From: an uncultured bacterium
GTDB lineage: Bacteria > Krumholzibacteriota > Krumholzibacteriia > LZORAL124-64-63
DNA length: 64,000 nucleotides
Reading direction: 5' to 3'
NCBI GenBank assembly: GCA_937864225.1
Contig: CALMJK010000016.1
Location: 127,636-191,635, forward strand
In this document: in pieces, positions 2,014 to 27,800 of the stretch
How positions within the stretch are numbered: position 1 is the first letter of the stretch
How the letters are laid out: each line of letters begins with the position of its first letter
Made by a program: the position numbers and the translations under genes
Notes under the pieces: generated by a model
Databases searched by the model: none
What the model saw: the letters and a program-made list of their open reading frames with translations, nothing else
What the model was told of the DNA's origin: nothing

Positions 2014-2222
2014 GCGCGTCTCCTCCGTCCCCGGCGGGGATTTCAGCGCCGAGCACGCCGCAGTCTAGCACCGGCCTAAAGCGGGCGCGACCTCGTTCCC
2101 TGCCGGCAAGTTGCCGTTGCCATCTCCCGCTCGGCGGCGCATCTTCGTCGGTGCACTGTGAGCGCGCAAGCAGTACGGGAGCGTTCCCGGCGCGGGGAGC
2201 GCGGTCTCCGGAAGGAGGAGCG

Positions 2223-5941: not shown

Positions 5942-6046
5942 GGCTTCCCGCCGAGGCGAATATTTCGGGCGTGCCAAGGTTATGTCAGTGGCGTCCGGTC
6001 CTTCCCCCGGGTCGCGGACGTCGCCGTCGTGAGGGAGGCCGCCGCG

Positions 6047-6349
6047 ATGTTCGAACTTGGCTTGCTCGTCCTCGTCCTGGCAGGGATTGGTCTGTCCGTG
6101 GGCCTGGCCGTCGCCTTGCTGGGCGCAATTTGTCACCTGCTGGCCATCCCCTTCGTGCTGCTGGGCTGGCTGCTGCGCGGGGTGCTGTGGCTGTTGGTGG
6201 CCCTGCCCGTGCTCGCGGCGCTGCTGGTCGTGGGCCTGCTCGCGTTGCCGGCCGCGCTGGCGGTTGTCCTGCTGCCCCTGGCGCTGCCGGCGCTCCTCGT
6301 CTGGCTCTCGTTTCGACTCCTGAGACGGCGGCGGGCCGGCGCGGCGTAA
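6047..6349 (+). CDS. Small hydrophobic membrane protein, function unknown
   Basis: Leu/Ala/Val-rich with a basic C-terminus. GGAGG RBS. Confidence 0.7.
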   Translation: MFELGLLVLVLAGIGLSVGLAVALLGAICHLLAIPFVLLGWLLRGVLWLLVALPVLAALLVVGLLALPAALAVVLLPLALPALLVWLSFRLLRRRRAGAA

Positions 6350-6431
6350 GGCGCGAAAGCGCTGGTCGTCGGTCACGTCCGGACTTACCATCCGTCTGCT
6401 CCGTGCCGACGTTAGGGCTGGGAGGTGCCGC

Positions 6432-7850
6432 GTGCCGCCGATCGTGGTCGTCTTCGAGGATCATTCCGTGGTGGATTTCCGGCCCTTGGCCTGGAGCCTG
6501 CCCCTGTATGAAATCCGCGGCGGCTTGCTGAACCTGCGCGAGCGTTTCGAGCGCGACTTGCCCGAGGTGGGAGGCCAGGCGCGCCTGGGCCTGTTGCCGC
6601 GCGGGCTGCTGGCGGCCTTGCAGGAGCTCAACTGTGAGCCCGGCACGGTGGTCGGCGTCGAGGCCTGTCGGGCCGCCGCGCAGCGCGGGGGCGCGCTCTT
6701 CGTCAACGCGCGCCTCGGCGCGCTGGCGAGGTTTCCTGGCGCTCTGTGCCGCGCGGCCGCGGGACAGGAGTGGGCGTGGGCGGACGAGGGCGGCCTGCTG
6801 GCCTGCGCGCTGGGCCCGGCGCGGGCCGTGGCCTGGCTGGCGGCTTGGGCGGATTGGGAGAAGCGCGCGGCGGCGGCCGGCGTCTGGAGCCGCGACGCGC
6901 GGCGGCCGGCGGCGTTCGCGCCGGACCTGGCGGATCTGGGGCCGTGCCCGGTCGATCCGACGGAGGGCCGGCAGCAGGGGGCAGCCTGGAGGGGCCTTTG
7001 GGAATTGGTGCCCGGCTTGGGCGAGGCGATCGGCGCGGATTGCGCGCTCACGGCGGCGCAGGCCGGCCTGCCGCCAAGGCGTCCCTTCGGGATCGTGCCC
7101 GACCCGGGCGCTTGGCCGGATCAGCCGCCCTGGGCGATGGGGACCACCTTGGCGAAGCTGGCGGGGGGCGCCCGCCCGGACCTGCACGTGCAGGGGGAAG
7201 TCTGGATCGGCTCGGAGGCGAGCCTGGCGCCGGGCACGGTGATCGATGGGCAGGCGGGGCCCGTCGTCCTGGATCGCGGCGTGCAAGTGCAGCCGCACTG
7301 CTACCTGCAAGGACCGCTGTACATCGGCCCGGCCACGCTGGTGAAGGCAGGCGCGCGGATCTATGGCGAGACCTCCATCGGCGCGGGGTGCCGCGTGGCG
7401 GGTGAGATCGCGGAAAGCCTGTTCTTGGACTTCGTGAACAAGCAGCACGAAGGCTTCATCGGGCACGCCGTGCTGGGAGCGTGGGTGAACCTGGGCGCGG
7501 GCACGACCTGCAGCGACTTGAAGAACAACTACGGCGCGGTGCGGATCGATTATGGGCTCGGGCCGGTCGACACCGGGTTGCGATTCGTCGGCGTGTCGAT
7601 GGCGGAGCACGCCAAGAGCGCCATCGGCACCCTGTTCAACACCGGCAGCGTGGTCGGATTCGCCAGCAACGTCTTCGGCGCCGGCTTTCCGCCCAAGACC
7701 CTGCCCAACTACACGTGGGGCGACCCGGCGGGTGCTCCCTACGATGCGAAAAGGGCGGCCGCTGTCGCCGCCACGGTCATGGCCCGCCGCGGGTGCCGTT
7801 TCCTGCCGGCGCACGAGCGACTCTTCCTGGACCTGGCGCGCTCGGACTAG
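6432..7850 (+). CDS. GlmU-like putative sugar nucleotidyl/acyltransferase with hexapeptide repeats
   Basis: N-terminal FED...FRPLAWSLPLYEIRGG. C-terminal left-handed beta-helix with NKQHEGFIGH, WVNLGAGTTCSDLKNNY and IGTLFNTG. Confidence 0.85.
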   Translation: MPPIVVVFEDHSVVDFRPLAWSLPLYEIRGGLLNLRERFERDLPEVGGQARLGLLPRGLLAALQELNCEPGTVVGVEACRAAAQRGGALFVNARLGALARFPGALCRAAAGQEWAWADEGGLLACALGPARAVAWLAAWADWEKRAAAAGVWSRDARRPAAFAPDLADLGPCPVDPTEGRQQGAAWRGLWELVPGLGEAIGADCALTAAQAGLPPRRPFGIVPDPGAWPDQPPWAMGTTLAKLAGGARPDLHVQGEVWIGSEASLAPGTVIDGQAGPVVLDRGVQVQPHCYLQGPLYIGPATLVKAGARIYGETSIGAGCRVAGEIAESLFLDFVNKQHEGFIGHAVLGAWVNLGAGTTCSDLKNNYGAVRIDYGLGPVDTGLRFVGVSMAEHAKSAIGTLFNTGSVVGFASNVFGAGFPPKTLPNYTWGDPAGAPYDAKRAAAVAATVMARRGCRFLPAHERLFLDLARSD

Positions 7851-14339: not shown

Positions 14340-14828
14340 ATGAGCGCGCATTCTTGCCCAAAGGCCACCGATGCCTGCTGCTCGCCGCGGGACGTCATCA
14401 CCCTGCCGGACGGCCTGGTGGGACTGCCCCACCTGCGTCGCTGGATCCTGCTCGACATGGACCGCGACCTGCCCCTACAGTGGCTCCAATCGCTGGATGA
14501 GGCGGGGTTTGGTTTCCCGGTGACCACACCGGAGTATTACCATCCGCATTGTGCGCCCGCCATCCCTGTGGAACTCGCCGCTGGCCTCGGGGCGGGAGTT
14601 GCGGGGGAGGTTGTCGTTCTCATTGTCACCACCGTGCTGCCCGGGGGCGCGCGCCTCATCGGCAATCTCGCGGCGCCGCTTCTGGTACACACGGGCAGCC
14701 GGCTGGGAGTTCAGCACATCGTCGAGGATGAGGACCTGCCGCTGAGGCAAGAGATCGATTACGTCCGGTTTGAGCGGGCGGCGAGCCTGCGGCGAGAGGT
14801 CGGGCAGAGACAGGAAATCGGCGTGTGA
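14340..14828 (+). CDS. fliW: Flagellar assembly factor FliW
   Basis: ITLPDGLVGL...WLQSLD...NLAAPL...GVQ. Adjacent to csrA. N-terminus divergent. Confidence 0.82.
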   Translation: MSAHSCPKATDACCSPRDVITLPDGLVGLPHLRRWILLDMDRDLPLQWLQSLDEAGFGFPVTTPEYYHPHCAPAIPVELAAGLGAGVAGEVVVLIVTTVLPGGARLIGNLAAPLLVHTGSRLGVQHIVEDEDLPLRQEIDYVRFERAASLRREVGQRQEIGV

Positions 14829-14876
14829 TACAATGCGGCCGGGCTCGCTCTCGGCCCCCGCGGACAGGGAGGTCCC

Positions 14877-15164
14877 GTGCTCATCCTCAGCCGCAAGCGG
14901 AACGAGAAGATCATGATCGGGGACGACATCTCGATCATGATCGTCGACATCCGGGGCGATCAAGTCCAGATCGGCATCGACGCCCCGCGCGCCATTCCCG
15001 TGCACCGCTTCGAAATCTATGAAGAGATCAAGAACATCACGCTGCGGGCGGCCGGCTCACCCGCTCCGGACGTCGACGGTTTGCGCCGGAAAGGGCGGCC
15101 CGCCGAGCCCGGCGAGGCGACGGGGCGCGACGCGGGCGACCGCCCGAACAAGAAGAAGACCTGA
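14877..15164 (+). CDS. csrA: Carbon storage regulator CsrA
   Basis: [18 protein letters not shown]...[19 protein letters not shown]. Confidence 0.95.
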
Positions 15165-15714: not shown

Positions 15715-18000
15715 ATGTTGGAGTCTGCATCCGCGCCGCGGGCGCATTCCTGGCCGCACCCCCTGCCGCCGTGGACGGTGCTGGTCGGGCCGGCCGGCTC
15801 GGAGGTCGGCGAGGCCGGGCGCGTCGCCCGTGTGAAGGCGGCCGGTCCGTTGCTGGCCTCGGCGGACGCGCAGGCGGACGCGGCCGGGCCCGCCTGCCTG
15901 CTGATCGACGGCGCGCAGGTCGAACCGGGCGCGCGCGGCGGCGAATTGGCGCGACAGCTCGACGCGCTGCTGAGCGCCCACCCGGGCACGCTGGCCATCC
16001 TGCTGTACGACTCTCTGGACGCCGCCGACTTGGCGGAGCTGTTTCACGCGGGACTGTTCGCCGCGCTGCCGCGCCCCGTGGCTTCCGAGCAATGGGCCGC
16101 GACGCTGTCACGCGTGCGCGCGCGCCGCGCACGCTGGCGCGAAGGGCAGGCGTTGCGACTGCAGGGTGAGCAAACGGTGGATCGGCTGCGCGCCCATCGG
16201 CGCCAGCTGCAGGAGCAGCTGGCGCTCGTCGGGGAACAGCTCATCACTTCGCAGGCGCGGCTCGAGCAGTCCAATCAAGAGCTGACGGAACACATGGGGC
16301 AGCTTGCGCTGCTCTACAGGATCGGTCGCGAATTGAGTGGCGCCCGCAACTGGGACGCGACCCTCGAGAACCTGTTGGGAAACTTGGCGGGCTTTTTGGG
16401 GGCGCGCGGGGCGGCGCTGGTGCTGCGCGGCGCGCCGGACGCACCGTACACGCCCCGCCGGAGCTTTGGCTGGGAGGAGTCGGTCTGGGACCGCGTGCTC
16501 GTGCGGCTCGAGTCGGAGCTCGGACCGAGCGGCAGCGCGCGACAGCTTTCGCCGGGCATCTTCCAGATGGAACTGGCCGCGGCCGACGCCGGCCAACGCG
16601 CCATCACCGCCCTGCCCCTGGATCACCAGGACACGCGCCTGGGATTCCTGCTGCTGCTGGATTGGCTCCCCCCAAGCGGTGACGCCCGGGAGCGTCATTT
16701 GCCGTTCCTGCAGGCCGTCCAGGTGATTCTGGCGGATGAGGTCGCGGGCGCGCAGATGCTCGATCGCATCCGCGAATTGGGCGCCTTCAACGCCAGAGTG
16801 CTCGAGACCGTCCGCAGCGGGATCTGGGTCGTGGACGAGAGTGGAAGGACGATCTACTGCAACCGCTGTGGGCGCCGTCTGCTGACGGGCGTGGATCGAC
16901 AGGCCGCCACGGACGAGGCGCCGGACACGGAAATCGGTCGGGGGCGCGGCGAGGGGGGAGCGAGGGACGCCGAGGTTGCGCGCGATTGGCTGCCCCTGGG
17001 CCCCGATCTGCCGGAACTGTTCCTCGAAGGACGGATTCAGCTGACGGGGGTCGCAGGCGCTCCCTTCGCGCGCCTGTTCTGGAGCGAGACGGGCGTGTTC
17101 CGCGGCGAGGGCCGCCTTTTGCGGCCGGACGGCGCGACCATCCCGGTGCTCCTGCAGACTTCGCTGATGCCGGGGCGCGGCCGCGATGAGCGCTGGCTGG
17201 TGTTGGTGGTCGAGGACCTGAGCGAGGCCAAGCGCCTCGAGGCCGAGCGGGTTCGCGCGGACGGGCTGCAGGGCCTGGTGGAGATGTCCGCCGCCCTGGC
17301 GCACGAGATTCGCAATCCGCTGATGGGATTGAGCGCCCAGGCGGAGTTGTTGGCCGGACAATTGACGGCGAGCGATGCGCGCAAGCGCTACCTGGACGTG
17401 ATCATCGCCGAAGTGGAACGCATCAACGCCACGATAACGCGCTTGCTCGGTTTCGTGCGGCCGTATGAACCGCGCCTGGCCCGCGCCAATATCGCGGACC
17501 TGGCCGGCGACTGCCTGGCTCTTTTGGCGGCACAGGCGAGCCAGCGGCAGTTGCGCCTGCGGCTGGAGCTGTCGCCTGACGAACGCGATCCTTCCGCCTG
17601 GGAGCAGGACGTGGACGGCGGGCAGATCAAGCAGGTGCTGCTGAATCTCCTGCTCAACGCGCTGGACGCCGCGCCGCCGCGCACGGACATCGTCCTGGCG
17701 CTGCGTCTGGAGTCCGGGGTCGAATGGCGAGACCGACAAACGGGCGCCGGCCAGTTGGCGGAGGGAACGGTGCTCGAGGTGCGCGACGCGGGCCCCGGCT
17801 TCGCGGCGGGCGAGGCAGAGCGCCTGTTTCGACCTTTCTATTCCACGAAGAGCGCGGGGACCGGCTTGGGCCTGTCGATCTGCCGCAAGATCGTCGTGGC
17901 GCACGGGGGCGAGATCCGCGCGCTGTGCGAAAATGGGCAGACGATTTTCCGAGTTCTGTTGCCGAGGCAAGGCGCGGCGGGCGCGCGGGAGGAAGCATGA
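15715..18000 (+). CDS. Sensor histidine kinase (degenerate REC-like, coiled coil, GAF-like, PAS, HisKA, HATPase)
   Basis: Motifs AHEIRNPL, NLLLNA, DAGPG, FRPFYSTK and GTGLGL. Confidence 0.9.
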   Translation: MLESASAPRAHSWPHPLPPWTVLVGPAGSEVGEAGRVARVKAAGPLLASADAQADAAGPACLLIDGAQVEPGARGGELARQLDALLSAHPGTLAILLYDSLDAADLAELFHAGLFAALPRPVASEQWAATLSRVRARRARWREGQALRLQGEQTVDRLRAHRRQLQEQLALVGEQLITSQARLEQSNQELTEHMGQLALLYRIGRELSGARNWDATLENLLGNLAGFLGARGAALVLRGAPDAPYTPRRSFGWEESVWDRVLVRLESELGPSGSARQLSPGIFQMELAAADAGQRAITALPLDHQDTRLGFLLLLDWLPPSGDARERHLPFLQAVQVILADEVAGAQMLDRIRELGAFNARVLETVRSGIWVVDESGRTIYCNRCGRRLLTGVDRQAATDEAPDTEIGRGRGEGGARDAEVARDWLPLGPDLPELFLEGRIQLTGVAGAPFARLFWSETGVFRGEGRLLRPDGATIPVLLQTSLMPGRGRDERWLVLVVEDLSEAKRLEAERVRADGLQGLVEMSAALAHEIRNPLMGLSAQAELLAGQLTASDARKRYLDVIIAEVERINATITRLLGFVRPYEPRLARANIADLAGDCLALLAAQASQRQLRLRLELSPDERDPSAWEQDVDGGQIKQVLLNLLLNALDAAPPRTDIVLALRLESGVEWRDRQTGAGQLAEGTVLEVRDAGPGFAAGEAERLFRPFYSTKSAGTGLGLSICRKIVVAHGGEIRALCENGQTIFRVLLPRQGAAGAREEA

Positions 18001-19445
18001 GCAAGAGGATCCTGGTCGTGGACGACGAGGTGGCCATCCGCCAATCGCTGGCGGAGGCCCTCATGGCCGACGGTTACGAGGTGCAAACGGCGGACAGCGG
18101 CGAAGAGGCGCTGGCAAGGTGCCACGCATCCGCCTTCGACCTGGTGATCAGCGACTTGCGGTTGCCGGGCGTGTCTGGACTTGAGGCGCTGCAGGCGTTG
18201 CGACACCGGGGCGAGGCCATTCCCTTCATCCTGATGACGGCCTACGGCGACGTCGACACGGCCGTGGCGGCCATGAGAGCCGGGGCATACGATTTCATCC
18301 AGAAGCCGTTTCGGCTGAACGCCATCCGCGCGCAAGTGCGCGCGGCCCTGCGCGCGACGGAGCGCGCGGCGGCGGAGCGCGAAGAAGCGGCGCCGGCGCC
18401 GCGCGCGGTGCCAAGCGGCGAACGGAACGATGCCATCAGCATGATCCGCGATTGTCCGGGGCTGGCGGAAGTCGCCCGCGTGCTGGACAAACTCGGCGCC
18501 AGCCGCGCGGGTCACGACACGTCGGTGCTCATTCAAGGCGCCTCGGGTTCGGGAAAGGAGATCGTGGCCCGCGCCATCCACGAGGCCGGTGAAACGTGCG
18601 GCGAGCCGTTCATGGAGATCAATTGCGCCGCGGTGCCCGAGAGCCTGCTCGAGAGCGAGCTGTTCGGGCACGAGAAGGGCGCCTTCACGGATGCCAAGGC
18701 GCGCAAGGAGGGGTTGTTCGAACTGGCAGGGCGCGGGACGATCTTCCTGGATGAAATCGGGGAAATGGGCATTCTGCTGCAAAGCAGGCTGTTGCGCGTG
18801 ATAGAAAACCGCCGGTTCCGGCGCGTGGGTGGCCGCGACGAACTGTCCGTGCAGGCGCGCATCGTCGCGGCGACGAATCGGCGTTTGGAGGACGAGATCC
18901 GCAGCGGAGCGTTCCGCAACGACCTCTACTATCGGCTGCAGGTCGTGGAGATTCACATTCCCGCGTTGTGTGAACGTCCCCAGGACATCACGGTCCTGAC
19001 CAACCGCTTCATCCGGGAGTTCAACGCGACGCTCGGCACCGAGTGCGTACCCGCCGACGCGCTGCTGAGCGAAGCCTTGGGCCGCTATCCCTGGCCCGGC
19101 AATGTCCGGGAACTGCGCAACGTGCTCAAGAGGATCATGATCCTCGAGGAACCGAGGCGGATCGTGCCCGAGCACCTCCCGCCGCACGTGCGCGCCGGCC
19201 GCGATCCGCGCCTGGCGGATGAAGGCGCGGCCAGCGGTCCCGAGGCGGGCCTGGTCTGCCTGGCGGAAGTGGAACGGCGGCAGATCCTGTACACGTTGCG
19301 GGCGACGGGCAACAACAAGAGTCGCGCCGCCCGGCTGCTGGGCATCTCGCGCCAGACGCTGCGCGAGAAGCTGCGTCTCTATCATCAGGATGACGGCGAC
19401 GACGGCGACGGCGACGAACCGCTGGCCGCCGAAGCCCGGGAGTGA
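17997..19445 (+). CDS. Sigma54-dependent response regulator (NtrC family)
   Basis: REC domain, GASGSGKE, GAFTDA, FLDEIG, WPGNVREL and a Fis-type HTH. ATGA overlap with the kinase. Confidence 0.95.
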   Translation: MSKRILVVDDEVAIRQSLAEALMADGYEVQTADSGEEALARCHASAFDLVISDLRLPGVSGLEALQALRHRGEAIPFILMTAYGDVDTAVAAMRAGAYDFIQKPFRLNAIRAQVRAALRATERAAAEREEAAPAPRAVPSGERNDAISMIRDCPGLAEVARVLDKLGASRAGHDTSVLIQGASGSGKEIVARAIHEAGETCGEPFMEINCAAVPESLLESELFGHEKGAFTDAKARKEGLFELAGRGTIFLDEIGEMGILLQSRLLRVIENRRFRRVGGRDELSVQARIVAATNRRLEDEIRSGAFRNDLYYRLQVVEIHIPALCERPQDITVLTNRFIREFNATLGTECVPADALLSEALGRYPWPGNVRELRNVLKRIMILEEPRRIVPEHLPPHVRAGRDPRLADEGAASGPEAGLVCLAEVERRQILYTLRATGNNKSRAARLLGISRQTLREKLRLYHQDDGDDGDGDEPLAAEARE

Positions 19446-19498
19446 GGGCGGCGCGGATCTGCCCAGCTTCCGGCCACCATTGACAGGAGCTCGGCCGC

Positions 19499-19532
19499 GG
19501 CCCCGGCAGCAGCGTCTGCCGGGGCCATTTTT
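19499..19532 (+). terminator. Intrinsic terminator
   Basis: 11-bp stem GGCCCCGGCAG/CTGCCGGGGCC followed by ATTTTT. Confidence 0.75.
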
Positions 19533-19669
19533 CTGCCGAGGCTGCGGCGTTGGGCTCCCAATTCGTATGTTATGTATCACACCAATTGACAGCACATTAC
19601 ATAAATATCTTCAGATAATACATTAGGTTCATGACGGCTGCCGCCAGGGCAGGGCGCCGCCGCGGGCCG

Positions 19670-19685
19670 GGGCATGTGGCTTGCC
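19670..19685 (+). promoter_or_regulatory. Putative sigma54 -24/-12 promoter
   Basis: GGGCATG-TGGC-TTGC with GG-N10-GC spacing, downstream of an AT-rich tract. Confidence 0.6.
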
Positions 19686-19738
19686 CTACGGCCCAACGCC
19701 CTGAAGCGCGGCGTTTGTGCATGGAGTGAGCGAGAGCG

Positions 19739-20107
19739 ATGTCCAGGACCAAGAATGTCCAACCGGCGCTGAGCGCTTCGCTCGCGCTGTACGAGACGGA
19801 GATCCGTCTGTACGGCGAGGTGCTGGCGCTTTCGCGGCAGCAGGGCGATCTGCTCCGGTCCGGGGCCTCGCTCGCGGAGATTCGGTGCCTGCTCGAGTCG
19901 AAACGAGCCCGTCTCGACGAGATATCCCGTCTCGAACAAGAGAACGCGTCCTCAAGCGCCTCGTGCGAGGCGCAGCGGCACGCCTTGCGGGGCGCGACGG
20001 CGGCGGCCCTGCATCAAGCCTTGCGCGAAGTCGGGAACCTCATCGAGCAGATCCTGGAGTTGGAAGAGGCCAACGACCGCCTGTTGTTCGCGAAAACGGG
20101 GGCTTGA
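19739..20107 (+). CDS. FlgN/FliT-like helical flagellar chaperone
   Basis: All-helical protein (LYETEIRLYGEVLALSRQQ...LLESK...IEQILELEEAN). Flagellar context. Confidence 0.55.
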   Translation: MSRTKNVQPALSASLALYETEIRLYGEVLALSRQQGDLLRSGASLAEIRCLLESKRARLDEISRLEQENASSSASCEAQRHALRGATAAALHQALREVGNLIEQILELEEANDRLLFAKTGA

Positions 20108-20109
20108 GC

Positions 20110-20832
20110 ATGACGATGCTGGCGAGCGCGCAAATGGACCGGTCCGGACGCCCTGGCCGCCTCATGCGCGGCTATCTGCACAAGACCAGCAACAATCTGT
20201 GCGGGATCAAAGGCTATGCGAGCCTGATCGTGGCGGGAGCCGACGAGCAGCGCACGACGACGTGGGCGCGCCGGATCCTGGCCGAAGTCGCCCAGATGGA
20301 GGCGGTCCAGCGTTCGGTGCAGGATTTGGCGTTCCCGCGCCCGTCGTCGGCGCCGGACGGCACGCTGGACGCGGCCGTCGGCGCCTCCGTCGCCGAGGCC
20401 CGGCGCGTGCACCCCAGACTGGTGGCGAAGGTCTGCCTGGGCGCGACGGGCGCGCTGCTGCTGCCGGCGCGCGATCTCCAACTCGTGCTGGGCGAACTGC
20501 TGGCCAACGCGGCCGAGGCGGCAGCGTCGGCCCGGGTGGCCATCACGACGGTGGCGCCGCGGGACGGACGCGTGGCTTTGTTGCTGGCCGATTCCGGGCC
20601 CGGCTTGCCCCGGGAGATCCTGCCGGAGGCCGCGGAGCCGTTCGTGACCACGAAGGCGGGGCATCTGGGCATCGGACTGGCCCGCGTGGACACGATCATG
20701 CAGATGCACGGTCTGGCCTGGTCGCTGGCCAACGCGGACGAGGGCGGCGCCGTGGCCTGTCTCGAGGTGGCGTCGGCGCCTGGTGCCGCGCGTCGCGCGG
20801 CGTCCGGCGCACAGAAGGGGAGCCATGTCTAG
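20110..20832 (+). CDS. Sensor-less, degenerate histidine kinase
   Basis: Altered H-box YLHKTSNNLCGIKGY, plus ELLANA, DSGPG, EPFVTTK and GIGL. Confidence 0.8.
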   Translation: MTMLASAQMDRSGRPGRLMRGYLHKTSNNLCGIKGYASLIVAGADEQRTTTWARRILAEVAQMEAVQRSVQDLAFPRPSSAPDGTLDAAVGASVAEARRVHPRLVAKVCLGATGALLLPARDLQLVLGELLANAAEAAASARVAITTVAPRDGRVALLLADSGPGLPREILPEAAEPFVTTKAGHLGIGLARVDTIMQMHGLAWSLANADEGGAVACLEVASAPGAARRAASGAQKGSHV

Positions 20833-22201
20833 CAAGCAGAAGATCCTCGTGGTGGATGACGAACAGTCCATGCGTGAGTGGCTCCACGCCGCGCTGTGCG
20901 GGCGTTACGAAGTGCAGGTGGCGCGCGACGGCGCCGAGGCCCTGGGCTGCCTCGAACGCGAGTCGGCCGACCTGGTGCTGTCGGATGTGCGCATGCCGGG
21001 GCATGACGGTCTGGCCTTGCTCGATGCGTTGGCCGGCCGCGCGACCGAGCCACCCCTGTTGGTCATGATGACGGCCTTCGGCACGATACAAGAAGCCGTG
21101 GAGGCGACCAAGCGGGGCGCGTTCGCCTATCTGACCAAACCTTTCACGCTTGAGCAACTCGAGCACGCGCTGCACAGGGCTTTCGAATACCGCCGTCTGC
21201 GCGAGGAGAACCGGTCGCTGCGGCGGAATGTCACGGCGCGGCGCGAGCAGTGGGGTCTGCTGGGCAACAGTCCCGCCATGCGCGACCTGCGGGAAAAGAT
21301 CGGCATGATCGCGGACGCAAGAGGCACCGTGCTGCTGCAGGGGGAAAGCGGCACCGGCAAGGAGGTCGCGGCGAAAGCGATCCACCTGGCCGGGGCGCGT
21401 CGCGCCGGGCCGTTCATCCGCATCAACTGCGCGGCCATCCCCGAGACCCTGCTGGAGTCGGAACTGTTCGGGTACGAGCGCGGCGCGTTCACGGGCGCCG
21501 TCCAGGCGCGCAAGGGCAAATTCGAGCTGGCGGACGGCGGCACGCTGCTCCTGGACGAGATCAGCGAAATGCCGTTTGCCATGCAGGCGAAGCTGCTGCG
21601 CGTCCTTCAGGAGCGGGAATTCGTGCGCTTGGGCGGCAAGTACGCCACCAAGATCGACGTGCGGATCATCGCCACTACCAATCGTGTCTTGCGTGACGAG
21701 GTGGCGGCGAAGCGGTTCCGCGAAGACCTGTTCTTCAGGCTCAACGTCATCCCGTTGCATTTGGCCCCGCTGCGCGAACATCGCGAAGACATACCGATCC
21801 TGGCGCAGCACTTCGTCGAAAGTTTCTGCGCGGAAAACGGCAAGCCGTTGATGATGATCAGCAAGGCCGCGATGGCGGCGCTGGCCAAGATGGATTGGCC
21901 CGGCAACGTGCGCCAGTTGCAGAACATCATCGAGCGCGCGGTCATCATGAACAACGGCCTGCTGTTGGAGGAGTCGCTCCTGGACCTCGCGGAGGAGATG
22001 GAGCCGTGCGGCGCGGTCGCGGCCGGCGCGCTGCCGGTCGACATGACGTTGTCGGACATGGAACGCGAACTGATCCTGCGCAAACTGCGACAGACCAACG
22101 GCAACCGCACGCAGGCCGCGCGCCTACTGGGCATCAGCGTGCGCACGCTGCGCAACAAGCTTCACCTGTACAGCGATTCGGGCGTGGTGATCCCGCGGTA
22201 G
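20825..22201 (+). CDS. Sigma54-dependent response regulator (FlgR/FleR-like by position)
   Basis: REC domain, GESGTGKE, GAFTGA, WPGNVR and HTH GISVRTLRNKL. Confidence 0.95.
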   Translation: MSSKQKILVVDDEQSMREWLHAALCGRYEVQVARDGAEALGCLERESADLVLSDVRMPGHDGLALLDALAGRATEPPLLVMMTAFGTIQEAVEATKRGAFAYLTKPFTLEQLEHALHRAFEYRRLREENRSLRRNVTARREQWGLLGNSPAMRDLREKIGMIADARGTVLLQGESGTGKEVAAKAIHLAGARRAGPFIRINCAAIPETLLESELFGYERGAFTGAVQARKGKFELADGGTLLLDEISEMPFAMQAKLLRVLQEREFVRLGGKYATKIDVRIIATTNRVLRDEVAAKRFREDLFFRLNVIPLHLAPLREHREDIPILAQHFVESFCAENGKPLMMISKAAMAALAKMDWPGNVRQLQNIIERAVIMNNGLLLEESLLDLAEEMEPCGAVAAGALPVDMTLSDMERELILRKLRQTNGNRTQAARLLGISVRTLRNKLHLYSDSGVVIPR

Positions 22202-22280
22202 GAGCGCGGTCTGAAATGAGACGCGACGGGCAGCCGAAAGCGCGATGCGGTCAGATGGGCGAGGCTGTTGGAGGGCTCGC

Positions 22281-22472
22281 ATGAGCGGCCGCGTGTCCGC
22301 AGCGACGCTGCTCGATGGCCGCCGCTGCCGCCAAGCGTCCCCCGTCCCGCTCCGCCGGGCGCGGGGCGCGGCCAAAATGGCCACGGACGGCGAGCTGACC
22401 GTGGAGCTCATGCTCGAGATCCGCAGCCGGCTGCTGGCGTCCTACCAGGAAATCATACGGCTCGTGGTGTGA
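22281..22472 (+). pseudogene. fliE: FliE C-terminal remnant or mini-FliE
   Basis: ELTVELMLEIRSRLLASYQEIIRLVV* matches the FliE C-terminus pattern. The N-terminal part is unrelated. Directly upstream of fliF. Confidence 0.75.
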
Positions 22473-23557
22473 ATCGCCACGCGCTGTGCCGAGGTGGCCA
22501 CGTGGAAGGGAACAAAAAGGAACCGGGCAGCAGCGGACAGCGCGTGGGATGCCTGTCCGCCAAGCGAAAGCTCGCGGTGGGCGCGTTGGCCCTTGCCGCG
22601 ACGCTTGGCGTGTTGGCGCTGGCGGCATGGCGGAACGACGCCGACCAGGTCGGGCGGTCCGCGAACCTGTCCCCGCATGCCGAGCTTCCGCCGGATGCGG
22701 ACGACAAGGGCGCAAACGGACGGGGCTTCGACCTGAACAGCGCGGCCGGACAGCTCGCGTTCAAGAAGGACATCGAGGGCTATCTCGCGCTGAAAGCGCA
22801 AACGATGCTCGCGGAGGTGCTGGGCGAAGGTCAGGCCATCGTGCGCGTGGACGCCACGTTGAACTTCGAGCAATTGCAGGAGAGCCGCGAGATCTACGAC
22901 CCGGCCGGCGCTGTCGTGCGCAGCGAGGAGCACGACGAGTCCACGACGAACCAAAGCGCCGGCGCTTCCGAGAGATCGGCGACCAGCTACGAGATCAACA
23001 AGACGCTGCAGACGCTCGTAGGCGAGGTCGGGAACGTGCGCCGGTTGTCCGTGAGCGTGTTCGTGGACGGCCATCACCTGCAGCCCGGTGCCGGCGACGC
23101 AACCGGCTACGTGCCTTTGACGGACGACGAGCTGCGGCAGCTCGAGCGGGTCGTGCAGACCGCTCTGGGCGTGAATCCTGAGCGTGGCGACCGCGTCGAG
23201 GTGGTCAATATGCGCTTCCGCGGGCGCGGTGCCCGGCCGGCGCCGGCGTCGCAGCGACCGGGCGGGGCCTGGCTGCCAGCCGCGGCGCGAAACGTCGGCA
23301 ACGCGCTGCTCCTGGCGACGGGCGTGGCGTTGCTGCTCGTGCTGTTTGGCGCCTTTCAGAAGCCGCTTGGCCTTGGCGCGGCCGGCGCCCGGCGCGCCGC
23401 GGGGCGCGGCGACGGCACGGAGGCCGCGAACGGCGCGGCCGCCGCCGTGGCCGCGGCGGAGGCGGACCGCATGGTCGACGAAGTGAGGGATTATGCCGCG
23501 GGCAATCCCGAGGCGATGGCGGAGTTGGTCAAGGCATGGCTGGGGGAACGGGCGTGA
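22469..23557 (+). CDS. fliF: Shortened MS-ring protein FliF (TM1, RBM3/beta-collar, TM2, FliG-binding tail)
   Basis: Motifs QTMLAEVLGEGQAIVRV, VVRSEE, SYEINKT, RLSVSVFVDG, GVNPERGDRVEV and NPEAMAELVKAWL. About 350-360 aa. Start at 22469 or 22502. Confidence 0.88.
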   Translation: MNRHALCRGGHVEGNKKEPGSSGQRVGCLSAKRKLAVGALALAATLGVLALAAWRNDADQVGRSANLSPHAELPPDADDKGANGRGFDLNSAAGQLAFKKDIEGYLALKAQTMLAEVLGEGQAIVRVDATLNFEQLQESREIYDPAGAVVRSEEHDESTTNQSAGASERSATSYEINKTLQTLVGEVGNVRRLSVSVFVDGHHLQPGAGDATGYVPLTDDELRQLERVVQTALGVNPERGDRVEVVNMRFRGRGARPAPASQRPGGAWLPAAARNVGNALLLATGVALLLVLFGAFQKPLGLGAAGARRAAGRGDGTEAANGAAAAVAAAEADRMVDEVRDYAAGNPEAMAELVKAWLGERA

Positions 23558-23611
23558 CAGCGGCGGGGACGCCGCCGTGCGACGCCCAATAGCCGGCAAG
23601 GCGGTGGCGCG

Positions 23612-24610
23612 GTGAACGAACAACTGCGCAAGGCGGCGATTCTGCTGATTGCGCTGGGACCGAAGGTCGCGGGACCGGTGATCAAGCGTCTTCCCGAGGA
23701 GACGATCGAGAAGCTCACCCGCGCGATCGCCGGGGTGGGTCGCGTGCCCAGCGAGGAACGGACCAGGGTGATCGCGGAGTTCGCAGGACTGCGCCGCAAG
23801 ACCGGTGACGCCGACTACGGCGGGGAGTGCTGCGCGCGCGCAATGATCGAGGAAGCGCTCGGCAGACACAAGGCCGGCGCGCTCCTCAGCCGCGCGACCG
23901 GTTACAGCGGCATCCAGAGTTTCGAGAGTCTCAAACAGATCGATCCGGCGACGGTGGCGGGTTATCTCAAGAACGAACACGTGCAGACCGCGGCCGTGGT
24001 GCTGGCGCACATGGACCCGCGCTACAGCGGGCCCGTGCTCGCTCTTTTGCCGGCTCCGATGCAGGGGGAAGTCGCATACCGCGTGGCCACTCTGGAGCGG
24101 CCCGATCGGGAGGCGCTGGAGATCGTCGAAAACATCATCGCCCGGCAAGTGCAGGGGGAATTCGCGCAGGCCCGGCGCCGATTCGGGGGCAAGCGGCAAG
24201 TGGCCGAGATACTCAACGAAGTGGAAAAGGAAGTGTGGCAGGAGGTCCTGGAGGAAATCCGCGAGATCGACATCGACTGCGCGAACGAGGTCAAGAGCCT
24301 GATGTTCATGTTCGAGGATCTCGTGAATCTCGATGACCGCGCGATCCGAGAGATCCTCAAGGAAATCGACAGCAAGGAACTGACGCTGGCGCTCAAGGGC
24401 GCGACGGCGGAAATCAAGCACAAGATCTTCCACAACATGTCCAAACGAGCCGTTCTCGGCATCGAGGAAGACATGGAGTTCATGGGCCCGGTCCGGCTGC
24501 AGGACGTGCAGGACGCGCAGGCGCGGATCGTCGATGTCGTGCGCAACCTCGAGGAAGCCGGGGCCATCATGCTGGGCAAGGGAAGCAAGGGTGCGGAATT
24601 GGTGGCCTAG
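23612..24610 (+). CDS. fliG: Flagellar motor switch protein FliG
   Basis: Motifs KAAILLIALG, EHVQ, FGG...AEILN, MFMFEDL and NMSKRA...EEDMEFMGPVR. Confidence 0.97.
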   Translation: MNEQLRKAAILLIALGPKVAGPVIKRLPEETIEKLTRAIAGVGRVPSEERTRVIAEFAGLRRKTGDADYGGECCARAMIEEALGRHKAGALLSRATGYSGIQSFESLKQIDPATVAGYLKNEHVQTAAVVLAHMDPRYSGPVLALLPAPMQGEVAYRVATLERPDREALEIVENIIARQVQGEFAQARRRFGGKRQVAEILNEVEKEVWQEVLEEIREIDIDCANEVKSLMFMFEDLVNLDDRAIREILKEIDSKELTLALKGATAEIKHKIFHNMSKRAVLGIEEDMEFMGPVRLQDVQDAQARIVDVVRNLEEAGAIMLGKGSKGAELVA

Positions 24611-24716
24611 TCGCGGGCGATCGCGCGCGAGGCCCTGCCGTGGGCCGTGGACGCCTCTGATGTCGTGGCGTTGACCGGCCGGCAAAAGGAACGCCTGGCC
24701 GCGGTGGGAGGATTCC

Positions 24717-25244
24717 ATGCGCAGCGTGCTGGCGATGTCGATGATCACGTTCGTGCTGATCTTCGGCGGCGTGATCCTGTTGGGACGCGTGCTGGTGGCG
24801 CGCGCGCCGGCCGGGCCAGCCGCGGGCGGCGTCGCGATCGTCGCTGCCGCGGGGACGGCGCAAGTGTCCGCCGACCTCCTTCTGGAGCGGGACCAGGTGC
24901 GACTCGAACGCGAAGCGCTCCTTTCGCTGCGTGGCGACCTGGCGGTCGAAGCAAAGGAACTGGCCGAGAGGCAGCGCGCAGTGCGGGCGCTGTTGGATTC
25001 GCTGCAGGCGCGAGGCGGCGAGGCTCGCCGGCCGCCCGACCAGGCGTTGGCCAAGCTGGCGAAAATGTACGAGGCCATGAAGCCGGAAAAGGCGGCGCCG
25101 CTGTTGGCCGCCCTCGACATGGACACGATCGTGGACGTCATGCTCTGCATGAGGGAACGGCCCGCCGCCCGGATTCTCTCCCACATGGAAGAGGCTCTGG
25201 CCGCGCGGATCAGTGAGCGCTTGAGCCGTCGGGGGTTGAAATGA
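24717..25244 (+). CDS. MotE/FlbB/YlxF-like membrane protein
   Basis: N-terminal TM helix, coiled coil, then KLAKMYEAMKPEKAAPLL...AARILSHM. Occupies the usual ylxF position. Confidence 0.8.
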   Translation: MRSVLAMSMITFVLIFGGVILLGRVLVARAPAGPAAGGVAIVAAAGTAQVSADLLLERDQVRLEREALLSLRGDLAVEAKELAERQRAVRALLDSLQARGGEARRPPDQALAKLAKMYEAMKPEKAAPLLAALDMDTIVDVMLCMRERPAARILSHMEEALAARISERLSRRGLK

Positions 25245-25399
25245 TGTCCGATGCCGCCAGCCCGAGGACGCGGCCCGCGGCAGGGCCAGACCCGGAGCAG
25301 GCGCCGGCCGGCGGGCGGCCGACGGCGCTGCCGCGCGGCACGCGCGTGGTCACGACGGGGGAAGAGATTCTGCGGGAATTGGTCTCGATCCTGCGCTGA
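25241..25399 (+). pseudogene. flgE: FlgE (hook) C-terminal remnant, 52-codon ORF
   Basis: Translated by hand, ending TRVVTTGEEILRELVSILR*, which resembles the FlgE end SRVITTSDEILQELVNLKR*. Sits directly before flbD. Confidence 0.7.
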
Positions 25400-25435
25400 A
25401 CGGACCGGAGGGTGCGCGGCAAGGAGCTAAAGGTC

Positions 25436-25669
25436 ATGATCAAAGTCACGAAACTCAATGCGAGCGAGCTCGTCGTGAACGCCGATCTCATCGAGTTCAT
25501 CGAAAGCACGCCGGACACGCTCATCAGTCTGACGACCGGGCGCAAGATCATGGTCCAGGAGGCTCTGGACGAGGTCGTGCAGCGGGCGATCGCGTATCGC
25601 CGGGCGGCGCGGGCTTACGCCGTGCCGGCCGGTGGCGTGGGGTCCGTGTTCGAGGGGCAAGGGCGCTAA
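25436..25669 (+). CDS. flbD: Flagellar FlbD (SwrD) family protein
   Basis: MIKVTKLN...VNADLIEFIESTPDTLISLTTGRKIMV. Confidence 0.93.
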   Translation: MIKVTKLNASELVVNADLIEFIESTPDTLISLTTGRKIMVQEALDEVVQRAIAYRRAARAYAVPAGGVGSVFEGQGR

Positions 25670-25698
25670 CGGCCTTTGCGGCGCGTCAGGAGGCTCGC

Positions 25699-26496
25699 GT
25701 GGACATCGCGACGCTATTGGGCTTGCTCTGCGGCTTCGGCATCCTCGTCTGGGCCGTGGCGACAGGCGGTTCCCTGGGCCAGTTCTTCCATCTGCCTTCG
25801 CTGGCGATCGTGCTGGGCGGGACGCTGGCGGCCGTGCTGGCGAACTTCCCGCTGCCGCGGGTGCGCAAGATGAGCGCCGTCGTGCGCAAGACTCTCTTTC
25901 ACCGGCATCAGGATCCGCAGGTCATCATCGACAAGCTGGTCTCCTGTGCCGAGCGCGCGCGCAAGGACGGGATGCTCGCTTTGGAGGAGGACTCCGAAAC
26001 GGAGCGGGATGAATTTCTGCGCAAGGGACTGCGTCTGGCCGTCGACGGCACCGACCCGCAGCTGTTGGAAAAGATCCTCGACACGGACATCGCGCAGCTC
26101 GAGGCGCGGCATCGGGAGGGCCGAAAGCTGCTGGAAGCGGCCGGCATGTTCGCGCCGGCCTTCGGCATGATCGGCACCTTGATCGGCCTGATCCGGATGC
26201 TGTCGCACATGGACCGGCCGGAAATGATCGGCCCGGGCATGTCGATCGCGCTGATCACGACCTTCTACGGGGCGCTGTTGGCGAACGTCGTGTTCCTGCC
26301 GCTGGCGGGCAAGCTCGGCGCGCGCTCGGAAGAGGAAGTTTTGTTGCGCGAGATGATCATCGACGGCGTGCTGGCCATCCAGAGCGGCGATTCGCCGCGC
26401 ATCGTGGCGGAGAAACTGCGGTCGTATCTGACGCCGGACGTCCGGCGACGCCTCGAGGGCGAACGCGAACAGCGCCTGCACCGGCGCGCCGCCTGA
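25699..26496 (+). CDS. motA: Flagellar stator protein MotA/PomA
   Basis: Motifs SLAIVLGGT, ARKDGMLALE, APAFGMIGTLIGL and ALITTFYG. Confidence 0.96.
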   Translation: MDIATLLGLLCGFGILVWAVATGGSLGQFFHLPSLAIVLGGTLAAVLANFPLPRVRKMSAVVRKTLFHRHQDPQVIIDKLVSCAERARKDGMLALEEDSETERDEFLRKGLRLAVDGTDPQLLEKILDTDIAQLEARHREGRKLLEAAGMFAPAFGMIGTLIGLIRMLSHMDRPEMIGPGMSIALITTFYGALLANVVFLPLAGKLGARSEEEVLLREMIIDGVLAIQSGDSPRIVAEKLRSYLTPDVRRRLEGEREQRLHRRAA

Positions 26497-26509
26497 GGCG
26501 GGAGGAGCC

Positions 26510-27208
26510 ATGCCCGGACGTCGCCGCACGCGCCACGACGAGAAGCGGGACACCCAGGCCTGGGTCATGACCTACGGGGACATGATGTCCTTGCTGCTGG
26601 TTTTCTTCATCCTGCTTGTCAGTTTTTCGACCATCCAAGAGACCAAATTCCATGACGCGGCGGTGTCCCTGCGGGGGGCGTTCGGCCTGACCGGCCACCC
26701 GCCCAGCTCACTGCACTTGCCGGAGTTGGCCGCTTCACGCGAGCGGCCGCCGCAGCGGCAGATGGCCGCCAGACTGGCCCGCGAATTGGAACAAAGCCTG
26801 CTTGGCGCGGGGTTGGACAAGGAAGTGGACATCGACGTGGGGCAAGAGGGGATCGCGGTCCGGGTGAGCGCGCCGTGCCTGTTCGCGTCCGGGCAGGCGG
26901 AGCTCAAGCCGGAGGCGGCGCAGCTGATCGCGGGCCTGGCCCGCCTCCTCGGCGAGTTCACCCACCCGGTGCGCGTGGAAGGGCACACCGACAACATTCC
27001 CATCCACAACGGCCGCTTCGACTCGAATTGGGAGCTGTCGGCGGCGCGAGCGGTGGCGGCGGCGAGAGGGCTGGAGGCGGCCGGCGTGGCGGCCGAGCGG
27101 CTGTCGGCGGCGGGGTGCGGTGAACACCGGCCCGTCGCCGACAACGCGACGCCCGAGGGGCGGGCATGCAACCGGCGGGTGGAATTCATGATGGAGTGGC
27201 GCCGTTGA
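26510..27208 (+). CDS. motB: Flagellar stator protein MotB/PomB
   Basis: WVMTYGDMMSLLLVFF. OmpA-like domain with VEGHTD, SNWELSAARA and NRRVE. Confidence 0.96.
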   Translation: MPGRRRTRHDEKRDTQAWVMTYGDMMSLLLVFFILLVSFSTIQETKFHDAAVSLRGAFGLTGHPPSSLHLPELAASRERPPQRQMAARLARELEQSLLGAGLDKEVDIDVGQEGIAVRVSAPCLFASGQAELKPEAAQLIAGLARLLGEFTHPVRVEGHTDNIPIHNGRFDSNWELSAARAVAAARGLEAAGVAAERLSAAGCGEHRPVADNATPEGRACNRRVEFMMEWRR

Positions 27209-27240
27209 GCCGGCGGGGCTGGGCGCAGGATGAGGCGGAC

Positions 27241-27768
27241 ATGATGATCGAGATCGAGAAGAGGGACGCGACGCAACTGCCGGCGGCGAGACAGCCGGGT
27301 TCCGGCGGCCTGTTCGAGAACAAGGTTGTCCTGCTCGGCGTGATCGTGATCGCGCAGTTGCTCACGGCCGTGGCGATCACCAGGCTCTTCATCGAGCCCC
27401 GATTCGCGCCGCGGCCGGCGGCGGAGGCCGGGGCGGGCCGGGTGAGCGTGCCGAGCGGGCGCACGGGCGAACTCGTCGGGCTGGGTGAAATGATCGTCAC
27501 CCTGCGCGACGACAGCGTCGCGCCGCACTATCTGCGCACGAATGTCAGTCTCGAGGTGGCGGGGGCCAGGACGGTGGCGCTTGTCGGCGAACGGCGTCCC
27601 CAACTGCGCGACATTGTGATCATGAGTCTTTCGCAGCGGACGGCCGCGCACCTGTTGACGCCCGACGGCAAGGAAGACGCGCGCCGCGAGATCGCCGCGC
27701 GTATCGGCGAGAAGCTGCCCTTGAACGCGTTGATCAACGTCTATTTCTCGGATCTTATGATCCAATAG
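27241..27768 (+). CDS. fliL: Flagellar basal-body protein FliL
   Basis: Single TM helix, then IVTL...HYLR, PQLRDIVI, LLTPDGKE and NVYFSDLMIQ. Confidence 0.92.
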   Translation: MMIEIEKRDATQLPAARQPGSGGLFENKVVLLGVIVIAQLLTAVAITRLFIEPRFAPRPAAEAGAGRVSVPSGRTGELVGLGEMIVTLRDDSVAPHYLRTNVSLEVAGARTVALVGERRPQLRDIVIMSLSQRTAAHLLTPDGKEDARREIAARIGEKLPLNALINVYFSDLMIQ

Positions 27769-27800
27769 GACGCCGCTGGCGTCCAGATCGCGGAGACCCG

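Follow-up and report, generated by a model that had tools for sequence, protein, structure and literature searches.

A FliF without RBM1 and RBM2 and an export-free set of rotor and stator genes in a bacterium of the Krumholzibacteriota suggest a flagellar motor retained for a purpose other than swimming

The DNA analysed here (the window) is a stretch of 64,000 nucleotides (nt) from an uncultured bacterium of the phylum Krumholzibacteriota (contig CALMJK010000016.1 of assembly GCA_937864225.1). It carries a reduced flagellar operon in which a short gene encoding the MS-ring protein FliF is followed by the genes of the rotor proteins FliG, FliM and FliN, of the stator subunits MotA and MotB, and of FliL, FlbD, FlhF and FliA. 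The short gene is genuine: it is a derived fliF that has lost, in frame, the regions encoding RBM1 and RBM2. This loss is one of five deletions, which together have removed the whole type III export apparatus with the rod, hook and filament, and have spared every rotor and stator gene. In the textbook view, the parts of the flagellum that generate torque and those that secrete are inseparable, since one and the same MS-ring holds the export gate and bears the C-ring. Here these parts have been separated by evolution, apparently more than once. Globally, the data suggest a flagellar motor that is kept for something other than swimming.

The short fliF gene

The open frame around fliF (22268-23557, + strand) contains two in-frame GTG starts, at 22469 and 22502. 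The second lies 7 nt downstream of a Shine-Dalgarno-like GAGGTG motif and is the start implied by the FliF sequence of 351 amino acids (aa) found in public collections; all residue numbers given below refer to this 351-aa form. The initial annotation of the window, made from the sequence alone, had described a protein of about 350-360 aa that joins a first transmembrane helix (TM1) by a linker to RBM3 and the beta-collar, followed by a second helix (TM2) and a tail, without RBM1 and RBM2. The length found is 351-362 aa, the strings quoted there for TM1 and for the C-terminus (NPEAMAELVKAWL) are both present, and this architecture is confirmed both by Pfam and by mapping on PDB structures.

Indeed, Pfam finds a single domain in the protein, YscJ_FliF_C (PF08345, E ~1.5e-32, profile positions 1-147 of 147), and no match to YscJ_FliF (PF01514), the family that covers RBM1 and RBM2, which is the outcome that the initial annotation had expected of such a scan. 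The score of the protein for the NCBIfam FliF equivalog TIGR00206 is 87 bits, under the cut-off of 129.75. In HMMER alignments with FliF chains from PDB, residues 71-140 correspond to residues 223-290 of Salmonella FliF and residues 145-240 to residues 345-438, and the alignment of the nearest full-length relative (P0003, 508 aa) begins at Salmonella residue 22. The stretch absent from the short FliF thus corresponds approximately to residues 59-222 of Salmonella FliF, that is to RBM1 and RBM2.

Residues 1-58 are collinear with the full-length relatives and include the N-terminus, TM1 and the 'NLSP' that opens RBM1; this short N-terminus was misplaced by MAFFT and was therefore placed by eye. 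Clear homology returns at residue 84, which corresponds to residue 234 of the relative, and about 25 linker residues without clear origin lie in between. No DQxGxxL hinge motif is visible in this linker in the alignment with relatives. At the DNA level, the alignment of the junction with fliF of the relatives G109 and G045 is too noisy at such divergence to place the breakpoints at single bases. The C-terminal D/EYAxxNPEAMAELVxAW motif is conserved in full-length relatives, and the alignment of the tail with residues 529-555 of Salmonella FliF is below significance (HMMER against PDB chains).

An AlphaFold2 model built on a 42-sequence alignment displays two transmembrane helices that are collinear with TM1 and TM2 of the relatives, a disordered linker (predicted local distance difference test, pLDDT, <50 for residues 46-74) and an RBM3 core with pLDDT >90. 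Its best Foldseek matches are the RBM3 and collar of Salmonella and Vibrio FliF (TM-score 0.61-0.65 normalised by target; 0.63-0.65 for the top matches, from Salmonella). The position of the gene agrees with its identity, as it lies directly upstream of fliG and is syntenic with fliF of the genomes G109, G045, G084 and G066.

Five deletions in the operon

The operon was compared with 100 kb each of G109 and G045 and with 60 kb of G084. In G109 and G045, the first part of the operon reads HK-RR-x-x-HK-RR-FlgB-FlgC-FliE-FliF-FliG-FliH-FliI-FliJ-FlbB-like-(FliK)-FlgD-FlgE (HK, histidine kinase; RR, response regulator; x, further gene) and continues as FlbD-MotA-MotB-FliL-FliM-FliN-FliO-FliP-FliQ-FliR-FlhB-FlhA-FlhF-FliA. 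The order in the window is HK-RR-x-HK-RR-[FliE tail]-short FliF-FliG-FlbB-like-[FlgE tail]-FlbD-MotA-MotB-FliL-FliM-FliN-FlhF-FliA (Table 1). Five separate deletions therefore distinguish it from its relatives: FlgB-FlgC-FliE, RBM1-2 of FliF, FliHIJ, FliK-FlgD-FlgE and FliOPQR-FlhBA. The downstream gene order (PurH, GuaA, SecA, TopA, HslUV) is wholly kept.

The genes spared by these deletions have kept their lengths. FliG, FliM, FliN, MotA and MotB all give full-length Pfam matches and, like FliL, FlbD, FlhF and FliA, are of usual length; lengths in the window and in the relatives are 332 and 332 aa for FliG, 175 and 175 aa for the FlbB-like protein, 265 and 264 aa for MotA, 232 and 232 aa for MotB, and 334 and 336 aa for FliM. 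Alignments show that the MotB plug and TYGD motif, the MotA channel segments, the FliG MSKRA...EEDMEFMGPVRL and the FliM LSxxEIDxLL motif, all of which we take to be functionally meaningful, are conserved with the flagellated relatives.

Table 1. Features of the reduced flagellar operon in the window and of the short FliF that it encodes
Feature	Coordinates	Strand	Evidence
Retained upstream regulators: histidine kinase, sigma-54 response regulator, weak FlgN-like open reading frame (ORF; 19739-20107), short HATPase_c protein (kinase-type ATPase), second sigma-54 response regulator	15778..22201	+	
FliE C-terminus remnant, 31 codons; its stop overlaps GTG 22469	22377..22472	+	tblastn; weak FliE profile matches; also in contig L045
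Short FliF, 351 aa (362 aa from GTG 22469)	22502..23557	+	PF08345 full-length, no PF01514; PDB mapping; 7/7 alleles 351 aa
TM1, aa 20-48	22559..22645	+	AlphaFold2 helix; collinear with TM1 of full-length relatives; dN/dS 0.24 vs L045
Periplasmic linker in place of RBM1 and RBM2, aa 49-80, containing the deletion junction	22646..22741	+	pLDDT <50 for aa 46-74; dN/dS 0.60
RBM3 and beta-collar insert, aa 81-240	22742..23221	+	PF08345 1-147; core pLDDT >90; Foldseek; dN/dS 0.27
TM2, aa 257-286	23270..23359	+	AlphaFold2 helix
Cytoplasmic C-terminal helices with putative FliG-binding tail, aa 311-350	23432..23551	+	pLDDT ~93-96; conserved motif
FliG, 332 aa, complete N, M and C domains	23612..24610	+	Pfam; TIGR00207 301.9 bits, above cut-off; length as in G109
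MgtE_N / FlbB-like membrane protein, 175 aa; located after FliJ in relatives	24717..25244	+	
FlgE remnant, last 24 codons, just upstream of flbD	25325..25396	+	tblastn
FlbD	25412..25669	+	PF06289, E 2.5e-25
MotA stator subunit	25699..26496	+	PF01618; 73% identity to G109 MotA
MotB stator subunit, plug and OmpA-like domain	26510..27208	+	PF13677, PF00691; TYGD conserved
FliL	27196..27768	+	PF03748
FliM, 334 aa, N-terminal LSxxEIDxLL kept	27801..28805	+	PF02154, PF01052; alignment
FliN, 122 aa	28802..29170	+	PF01052; gene model
FlhF-like GTPase of the signal recognition particle type, directly after FliN, where relatives have FliOPQR-FlhB-FlhA	29521..30582	+	
FliA-type sigma factor	30704..31579	+	Sigma70 r2, r3, r4; 81% identity to G109

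Two of the deletions have left the 3' end of a lost gene; what survives of fliE and flgE lies immediately before the fliF and flbD starts, respectively. Residues 76-103 of G109 FliE align by tblastn at 22386-22469 (E 6.6e-9), and residues 662-685 of G109 FlgE at 25325-25396 with 62.5% identity (E 1.6e-6). As far as can be read from the DNA itself, the translation signals of fliF and flbD are thus spared by the deletions. In the metagenome contig L045 (1545 nt, 85-88% nucleotide identity), only 3 positions within the final 69 nt of the FliE tail are different from the window, versus 12-15% in the flanks, and the first 8 codons of this tail differ by 6 amino acids; the start region of fliF therefore looks like a case of nucleotide-level conservation. 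The FliE-tail ORF may be kept as part of the translation start region of fliF, or as a coupling ORF. A scan of the intergenic regions at the junctions revealed no remnants of FliH, FliJ, FliO or FlhA.

The same junction in other alleles and contigs

An assembly collapse at fliF, which the initial annotation had named as what could overturn its reading, is not borne out by other sequences. The cluster of FliF proteins sharing at least 90% identity includes 7 distinct alleles, carried by contigs of 14.6-280 kb from ENA, Logan and NCBI; all are 351 aa long with the frame kept, and their differences are confined to N45S, AN71-72TS and A338G. The contig L045 has the same junction as the window and carries the end of the response regulator gene, the 31-codon FliE tail and the short FliF up to residue 260. 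In addition, a run from another study (X1) provides a 1925-nt contig that covers 22200-23390 with 31 differences and no gap, and a 6702-nt contig that covers 23450-30152 with 161 differences and one gap. Together, the X1 contigs bridge the fliF junction and the other junctions of the operon.

Absence of export genes from the genome and comparison within the phylum

The genome that includes the window (G000) amounts to 2.87 Mb in 21 contigs and is 98.63% complete. Family searches of this genome gave 0 matches for PF01514, FliP (PF00813), FHIPEP (PF00771), Bac_export_2 (PF01312), Flagellin_N and Flg_bbr_C; the FliP, FHIPEP and Bac_export_2 profiles matched 4 of 14 control genomes. Likewise, tblastn searches of this genome with the G109 proteins detected no FlgB, FlgC, FliH, FliJ, FlgD or FlgE, and no FliO, FliP, FliQ, FliR, FlhB, FlhA or flagellin. 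No second, full-length fliF, which could also have overturned the initial annotation, was found in it.

Among 151 sampled genomes of the phylum, PF08345 and PF01514 each occur in 86, and the genome of the window alone has PF08345 without PF01514. FliP occurs in 85 of the 151; among the genomes with a FliF C-terminal domain, it is lacking only in the one studied here and in two assemblies of 84-86% completeness. The genus is represented in the genome collection by this genome only, and the closest genomes by FliG identity (73-74%) are G155, G045 and G109. The initial annotation had also counted a full-length fliF in close relatives as a refutation. Such genes do exist in other genera of the same family, in which PF01514 is found in 59 of the 60 other genomes and flagellated members have FliF proteins of 500-527 aa in the same conserved neighbourhood, but they indicate that the deletion is derived, not that the locus is misassembled.

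Short FliF proteins in other lineages

The initial annotation had proposed to look for the same architecture in other genomes and for a joint absence of the export gate. A search of 1.84 billion representative proteins gave 3720 matches at E<=0.001, the best 150 of which were inspected. Most of the short matches among these 150 are N-terminally truncated fragments that start inside RBM2 and were discarded. Four are complete short FliF proteins with TM1, TM2, the tail and a partial PF01514 match: P0077 (383 aa), P0155 (396 aa), P0128 (415 aa) and P0057 (365 aa).

P0077, the representative of a cluster of 13 sequences, comes from the metagenome-assembled genome G167 of the Desulfobacterales. Its FliF (383 aa) has lost RBM2 alone and keeps RBM1; a complete FliG comes next, the genes beyond it are unrelated and lie on the other strand, and a second contig carries MotA-FliM-FliN-MinD-like-FliA. 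Searches of G167 found no FliP, FlhA, flagellin, Flg_bbr_C or genes for methyl-accepting chemotaxis proteins (MCPs). P0077 matches 59 of the 121 Desulfobacterales genomes sampled. Nearly all frames among the matches listed have 512-598 aa, the exceptions being those of G167 (400 aa), G242 (411 aa) and G294 (188 aa), the last of which matches only the N-terminal part of P0077. The nearest relative found for G167 (G290, 54-66% identity) has the canonical order FlgC-FliE-FliF(521 aa)-FliG-FliH-FliI-FliJ-MgtE_N-FliK.

The FliF of G242 (409 aa) has a complete PF08345 and matches PF01514 only at positions 145-178; its deletion starts within the first helix of RBM1 and stops close to where RBM2 ends. 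The genes around it encode, in order, a sigma-54 activator, a tetratricopeptide repeat (TPR) protein, FliF, FliG, an unnamed ORF, an MgtE_N protein and unrelated products; the FliF-FliG-MgtE_N part of this order mirrors the window. On this contig (G242:C83, locus L061), the TPR protein lies directly upstream of fliF and has 737 aa (1115-3328), and the ORF that separates fliG from the MgtE_N gene, in the place taken by FliH, FliI and FliJ in relatives, encodes an unannotated protein of 161 aa (6036-6521).

The short proteins of G167 and G242, as well as P0155, P0128 and P0057, resemble the FliF of the window in that they show an in-frame loss within RBM1-RBM2 and keep TM1, RBM3, TM2 and the tail. 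However, G167 and G242 belong to another phylum and have other deletion boundaries; in G242, RBM1 is kept at its start and RBM2 at its end. The differences in boundaries between G000, G167 and G242 indicate independent in-frame events. The absence of the export gate goes together with that of the FliF domains: FliP and FlhA occur in 0 of 2 Desulfobacterales genomes with a short FliF versus 4 of 4 full-length relatives of the same order, and, with G000 and four comparators included, in 0 of 3 versus 8 of 8, counts that concern kin and not independent samples.

P0057 is a single sequence from a 13.6-kb contig. It is Krumholzibacteria-like, keeps RBM1, lacks RBM2 and matches only positions 94-147 of PF08345. 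None of 208 genomes of the phylum was found to contain it, and it may be a further independent reduction.

Selection on fliF since the deletion

Selection after the deletion was estimated by the ratio of nonsynonymous to synonymous substitution rates (dN/dS, Nei-Gojobori) between G000 and L045, which both carry the deletion and are separated by a dS of ~0.3. The ratio is 0.27 for RBM3 and the collar (26 nonsynonymous and 28 synonymous differences, the latter in excess with a binomial P=1.8e-5) and 0.24 for TM1, compared with 0.20 for the control, the C-terminus of the adjacent response regulator. On this comparison, RBM3 is under purifying selection since the deletion.

A putative hollow rotor

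Three properties of canonical FliF bear on what the shortened protein could do. Passages of published studies place the export complex within an inner ring formed by RBM2 (PMC11739650), report that the isolated RBM3 of Salmonella adopts the native oligomer (PMC8786727) and state that the C-terminus of FliF binds the N-domain of FliG (PMC4768692). According to the initial annotation, the lost domains are those that serve the lost export gate, leaving a hollow ring able to anchor a C-ring. Its first part holds, as the domains removed are those that serve the gate and the gate itself has been lost along with them. For the second, we infer that the remainder would form such a ring from the conservation of RBM3 and of the tail, the confident RBM3 fold, the published oligomerisation of RBM3 and a prediction of self-association.

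In this prediction, which bears on the assembly of a ring of about 34 subunits as expected of an MS-ring protein, four copies of residues 78-255 associate with an ipSAE (interaction prediction score from aligned errors) of 0.62, compared with 0.00 for the best control, a level reached by 20 of 30 proteins known from same-chain pairs and by 1 of 23 single-chain proteins. Runs with four copies agree in at least 92% of contacts, with a partner pLDDT of at least 76, and the predicted contacts between copies are of helix-on-sheet type and, in the collar, of strand-on-strand type. As MS-rings are solved structures, this result may reflect the predictor's prior exposure to them.

The complex could operate as follows. 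The short FliF would still insert in the membrane by its two transmembrane helices, and RBM3 with the beta-collar would still assemble into the S-ring. With the inner RBM2 ring and FliPQR both missing, the centre of this ring would be devoid of an export gate. The cytoplasmic tails would template FliG, and hence the C-ring of FliM and FliN, which the MotA/MotB stators, with FliL and FlbD, would still engage through FliG. The outcome would be a proton-driven 'hollow rotor' selected for a role other than swimming. MotA, MotB, FliL and FlbD have been retained at near-normal substitution rates, which suggests that stator engagement and ion-driven rotation still matter. A selected, export-free hollow rotor with stators is therefore the reading that we prefer, with a probability of about 0.5; ring assembly, docking of FliG and rotation would all have to follow from the retained parts.

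More tentatively, and at somewhat less than even odds, export-free motors might form a recurrent, selected class, found in at least three lineages of two phyla, in which RBM1/RBM2 have independently been cut in frame, the secretion system, rod, hook and filament have been given up, and a hollow MS-ring, C-ring and proton-driven stators are kept; the rotor would then spin in the inner membrane for a function unrelated to propulsion.

Alternative explanations

Several observations weigh against a selected rotor. Neither new genes nor a candidate output partner for a rod-less rotor were found at the deletion junctions. No MCP gene was found in the genome, which leaves no known input for the switch, and CheW is represented by one sub-threshold match only (20.8 bits, G000:C5:196369-196749) inside a 719-aa open frame. 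MCPs are present in the relatives G109, G084 and G066; it seems that input from chemotaxis disappeared together with the filament.

With G084 as outgroup, the distance ratios of the window are 1.43 for FliF, 1.34 for FliG, 1.25 for FliM, 1.20 for MotA and 1.16 for FliN; the named housekeeping genes range over 0.78-1.07 and other non-flagellar control genes reach 1.15. MotB, FliL, FlbD, FlhF and FliA have ratios of ~1.0-1.1. A count restricted to sites on which G109, G045 and G084 agree gives 219 unique substitutions in the motor genes of the window, versus 78 for G109 and 75 for G045; for housekeeping genes, the counts are 219, 207 and 248, respectively. The rotor proteins of the window thus evolve ~3 times faster than those of its relatives, an acceleration that fits relaxed constraint.

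The estimates of selection have limits of their own. Relative to L045, whose coverage is only ~2x, the dN/dS is 0.41 for the whole fliF and 0.60 for the linker, and selection after the deletion was computed for fliF alone; a FliG search for the L045 lineage returned the cluster of the window itself (2 distinct sequences) and then a cluster of 78% identity, none of them usable for selection. Between the window and the X1 strain, the fliF differences listed include at least 10 nonsynonymous and at least 7 synonymous ones (P=0.12), which is indistinguishable from neutral evolution. Finally, the completeness of G167 and G242 is not reported, which weakens the gene absences noted in both.

The main rival is a decaying relic: swimming would have been lost, the genes for export, rod, hook and filament, being costly or exposed, would have been removed first by selection or by chance, and functionless rotor and stator genes would simply not have been disrupted yet. 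The faster substitution in FliF, FliG, FliM and FliN than in flagellated relatives, the loss of chemoreceptors, the small genome (2.87 Mb) and the differences from the near strain all point in this direction. Passages of a published survey also note incomplete motors that are possibly remnants (PMC12199754). However, decay does not readily account for five separate deletions that all spare the rotor and stator genes and their lengths, for an in-frame deletion in FliF followed by purifying selection on RBM3, or for 7 intact FliF alleles out of 7. Nor does it account for the near-normal rates of MotA, MotB, FliL and FlbD, for the retention of those 3' ends of deleted genes that carry the start region of the next gene, or for the same state being reached in three lineages of two phyla by different in-frame deletions of FliF. 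A relic is thus unlikely, though a serious contender.

Another possibility is a functional but static assembly, in which the short FliF together with FliG, FliM, FliN and FlhF would mark a cell pole or provide a regulatory platform, and would not rotate; it might, for example, control the division site or polarity. MS-ring and C-ring proteins do take part in the control of the division site in Campylobacter, FlhF is retained in the window, and a MinD/FlhG-like ATPase gene adjoins FliN in G167. Such a scaffold would not need MotA, MotB, FliL and FlbD, which are kept with conserved channel and plug segments and at near-normal rates, and G167 also keeps MotA beside FliM. It is because the stator genes are retained at these rates that a rotating hollow rotor is ranked above a static polar scaffold, which we regard as improbable.

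It is far less probable that the short FliF works with a highly divergent export gate or rod, so that a machine that secretes or bears a filament persists. Nothing positive indicates this beyond the fact that profile searches can miss very divergent proteins. The FliP, FHIPEP and Bac_export_2 profiles that detect these families in 4 of 14 control genomes find none here, no new genes occupy the deletion junctions, and RBM2, which houses the gate, is itself gone. An artefact, in which a collapsed assembly, a chimeric bin or wrong gene calling would make fliF look short and the operon look reduced when they are not, can be set aside almost entirely, for although the genome is a metagenome-style assembly, the seven alleles from several sources and the contigs of the other study, the junction shared with L045 and the intact synteny with relatives on both flanks all speak against it.

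Comparison with known systems

The best matches of the short FliF in both sequence and fold are the structures of canonical Salmonella FliF (PDB 6SD1, 6SCN, 7BK0, 8T8P), which likewise have two transmembrane helices and RBM3 with the collar, and a C-terminal FliG-binding tail to which the putative one of the short FliF corresponds. Unlike these, the protein of the window is devoid of RBM1 and RBM2, about 150 aa, so that it cannot form the 23-mer inner ring or the cog-like structures of RBM1/RBM2 that passages of PMC11739650 describe in Salmonella.

Naturally shortened FliF proteins are also found in the Chlamydiaceae, which are non-flagellated and, like the bacterium studied here, have a subset of flagellar genes (~330 aa, with a FliF-FliG fusion; Bergeron 2016, PMC4768692). 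They represent the converse case: they keep the RBM2-like part and have lost RBM3 (SpoIIIAG-like), and they occur with export-type genes (FlhA). SpoIIIAG itself, from the sporulation channel of Bacillus (PDB 5WC3), combines one membrane anchor, a linker and a single RBM with a beta-insert that forms a large ring, an arrangement that the short FliF would share. The fold match is weak (Foldseek E 0.022, TM-score 0.50 normalised by target) and SpoIIIAG has no second transmembrane helix, FliG-binding tail or motor context, and no sequence relation to the short FliF detectable by HMMER. The flagellar basal bodies of Buchnera provide another reduced apparatus in a non-motile bacterium, but with the opposite subset: according to passages of PMC8109811, the basal body and type III export are kept there, whereas the window keeps rotor and stator.

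Neither an RBM3-only FliF nor an export-free set of rotor and stator genes was found described in the literature searched, its supplementary tables aside; the survey PMC12199754 contains, in the passages available, no domain-level analysis, and the term FliF is absent from its main text. If the complex assembles, it would give structural biology and biophysics a minimal rotor free of export, and would offer a natural test of whether RBM3 alone sets the size of the ring and templates FliG. It also carries a warning for annotation, as a genome positive for FliF, FliG, FliM and MotAB need not be flagellated.

Other observations in the window

The P-loop of FlhF reads GxxGxGRT, with Arg in place of the usual Lys. 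This change was considered as a sign of decay and rejected, since it is also found in the flagellated G109 and is thus a trait of the clade. A sequencing run labelled RNA-Seq (X2) was likewise rejected as RNA evidence, as it is probably DNA.

Downstream of fliA, an HDOD gene (31613-32524) is the only one of its kind in the window. In G109 and G045, the gene finder predicts additional ORFs after fliA, some of them HDOD-like, plus a small response-regulator-like ORF; in this comparison, Pfam was run on the gene of the window only. Upstream of the operon, FliW (PF02623) and CsrA (PF02599) are kept at 14340-15164. The usual partner of FliW is flagellin, for which no gene was found in the genome. 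Further upstream, between 8231 and 11528, the translations of several small ORFs, which adjoin a 495-aa ORF, resemble BMC-H-like and EutN/CcmL-like shell proteins of microcompartments.

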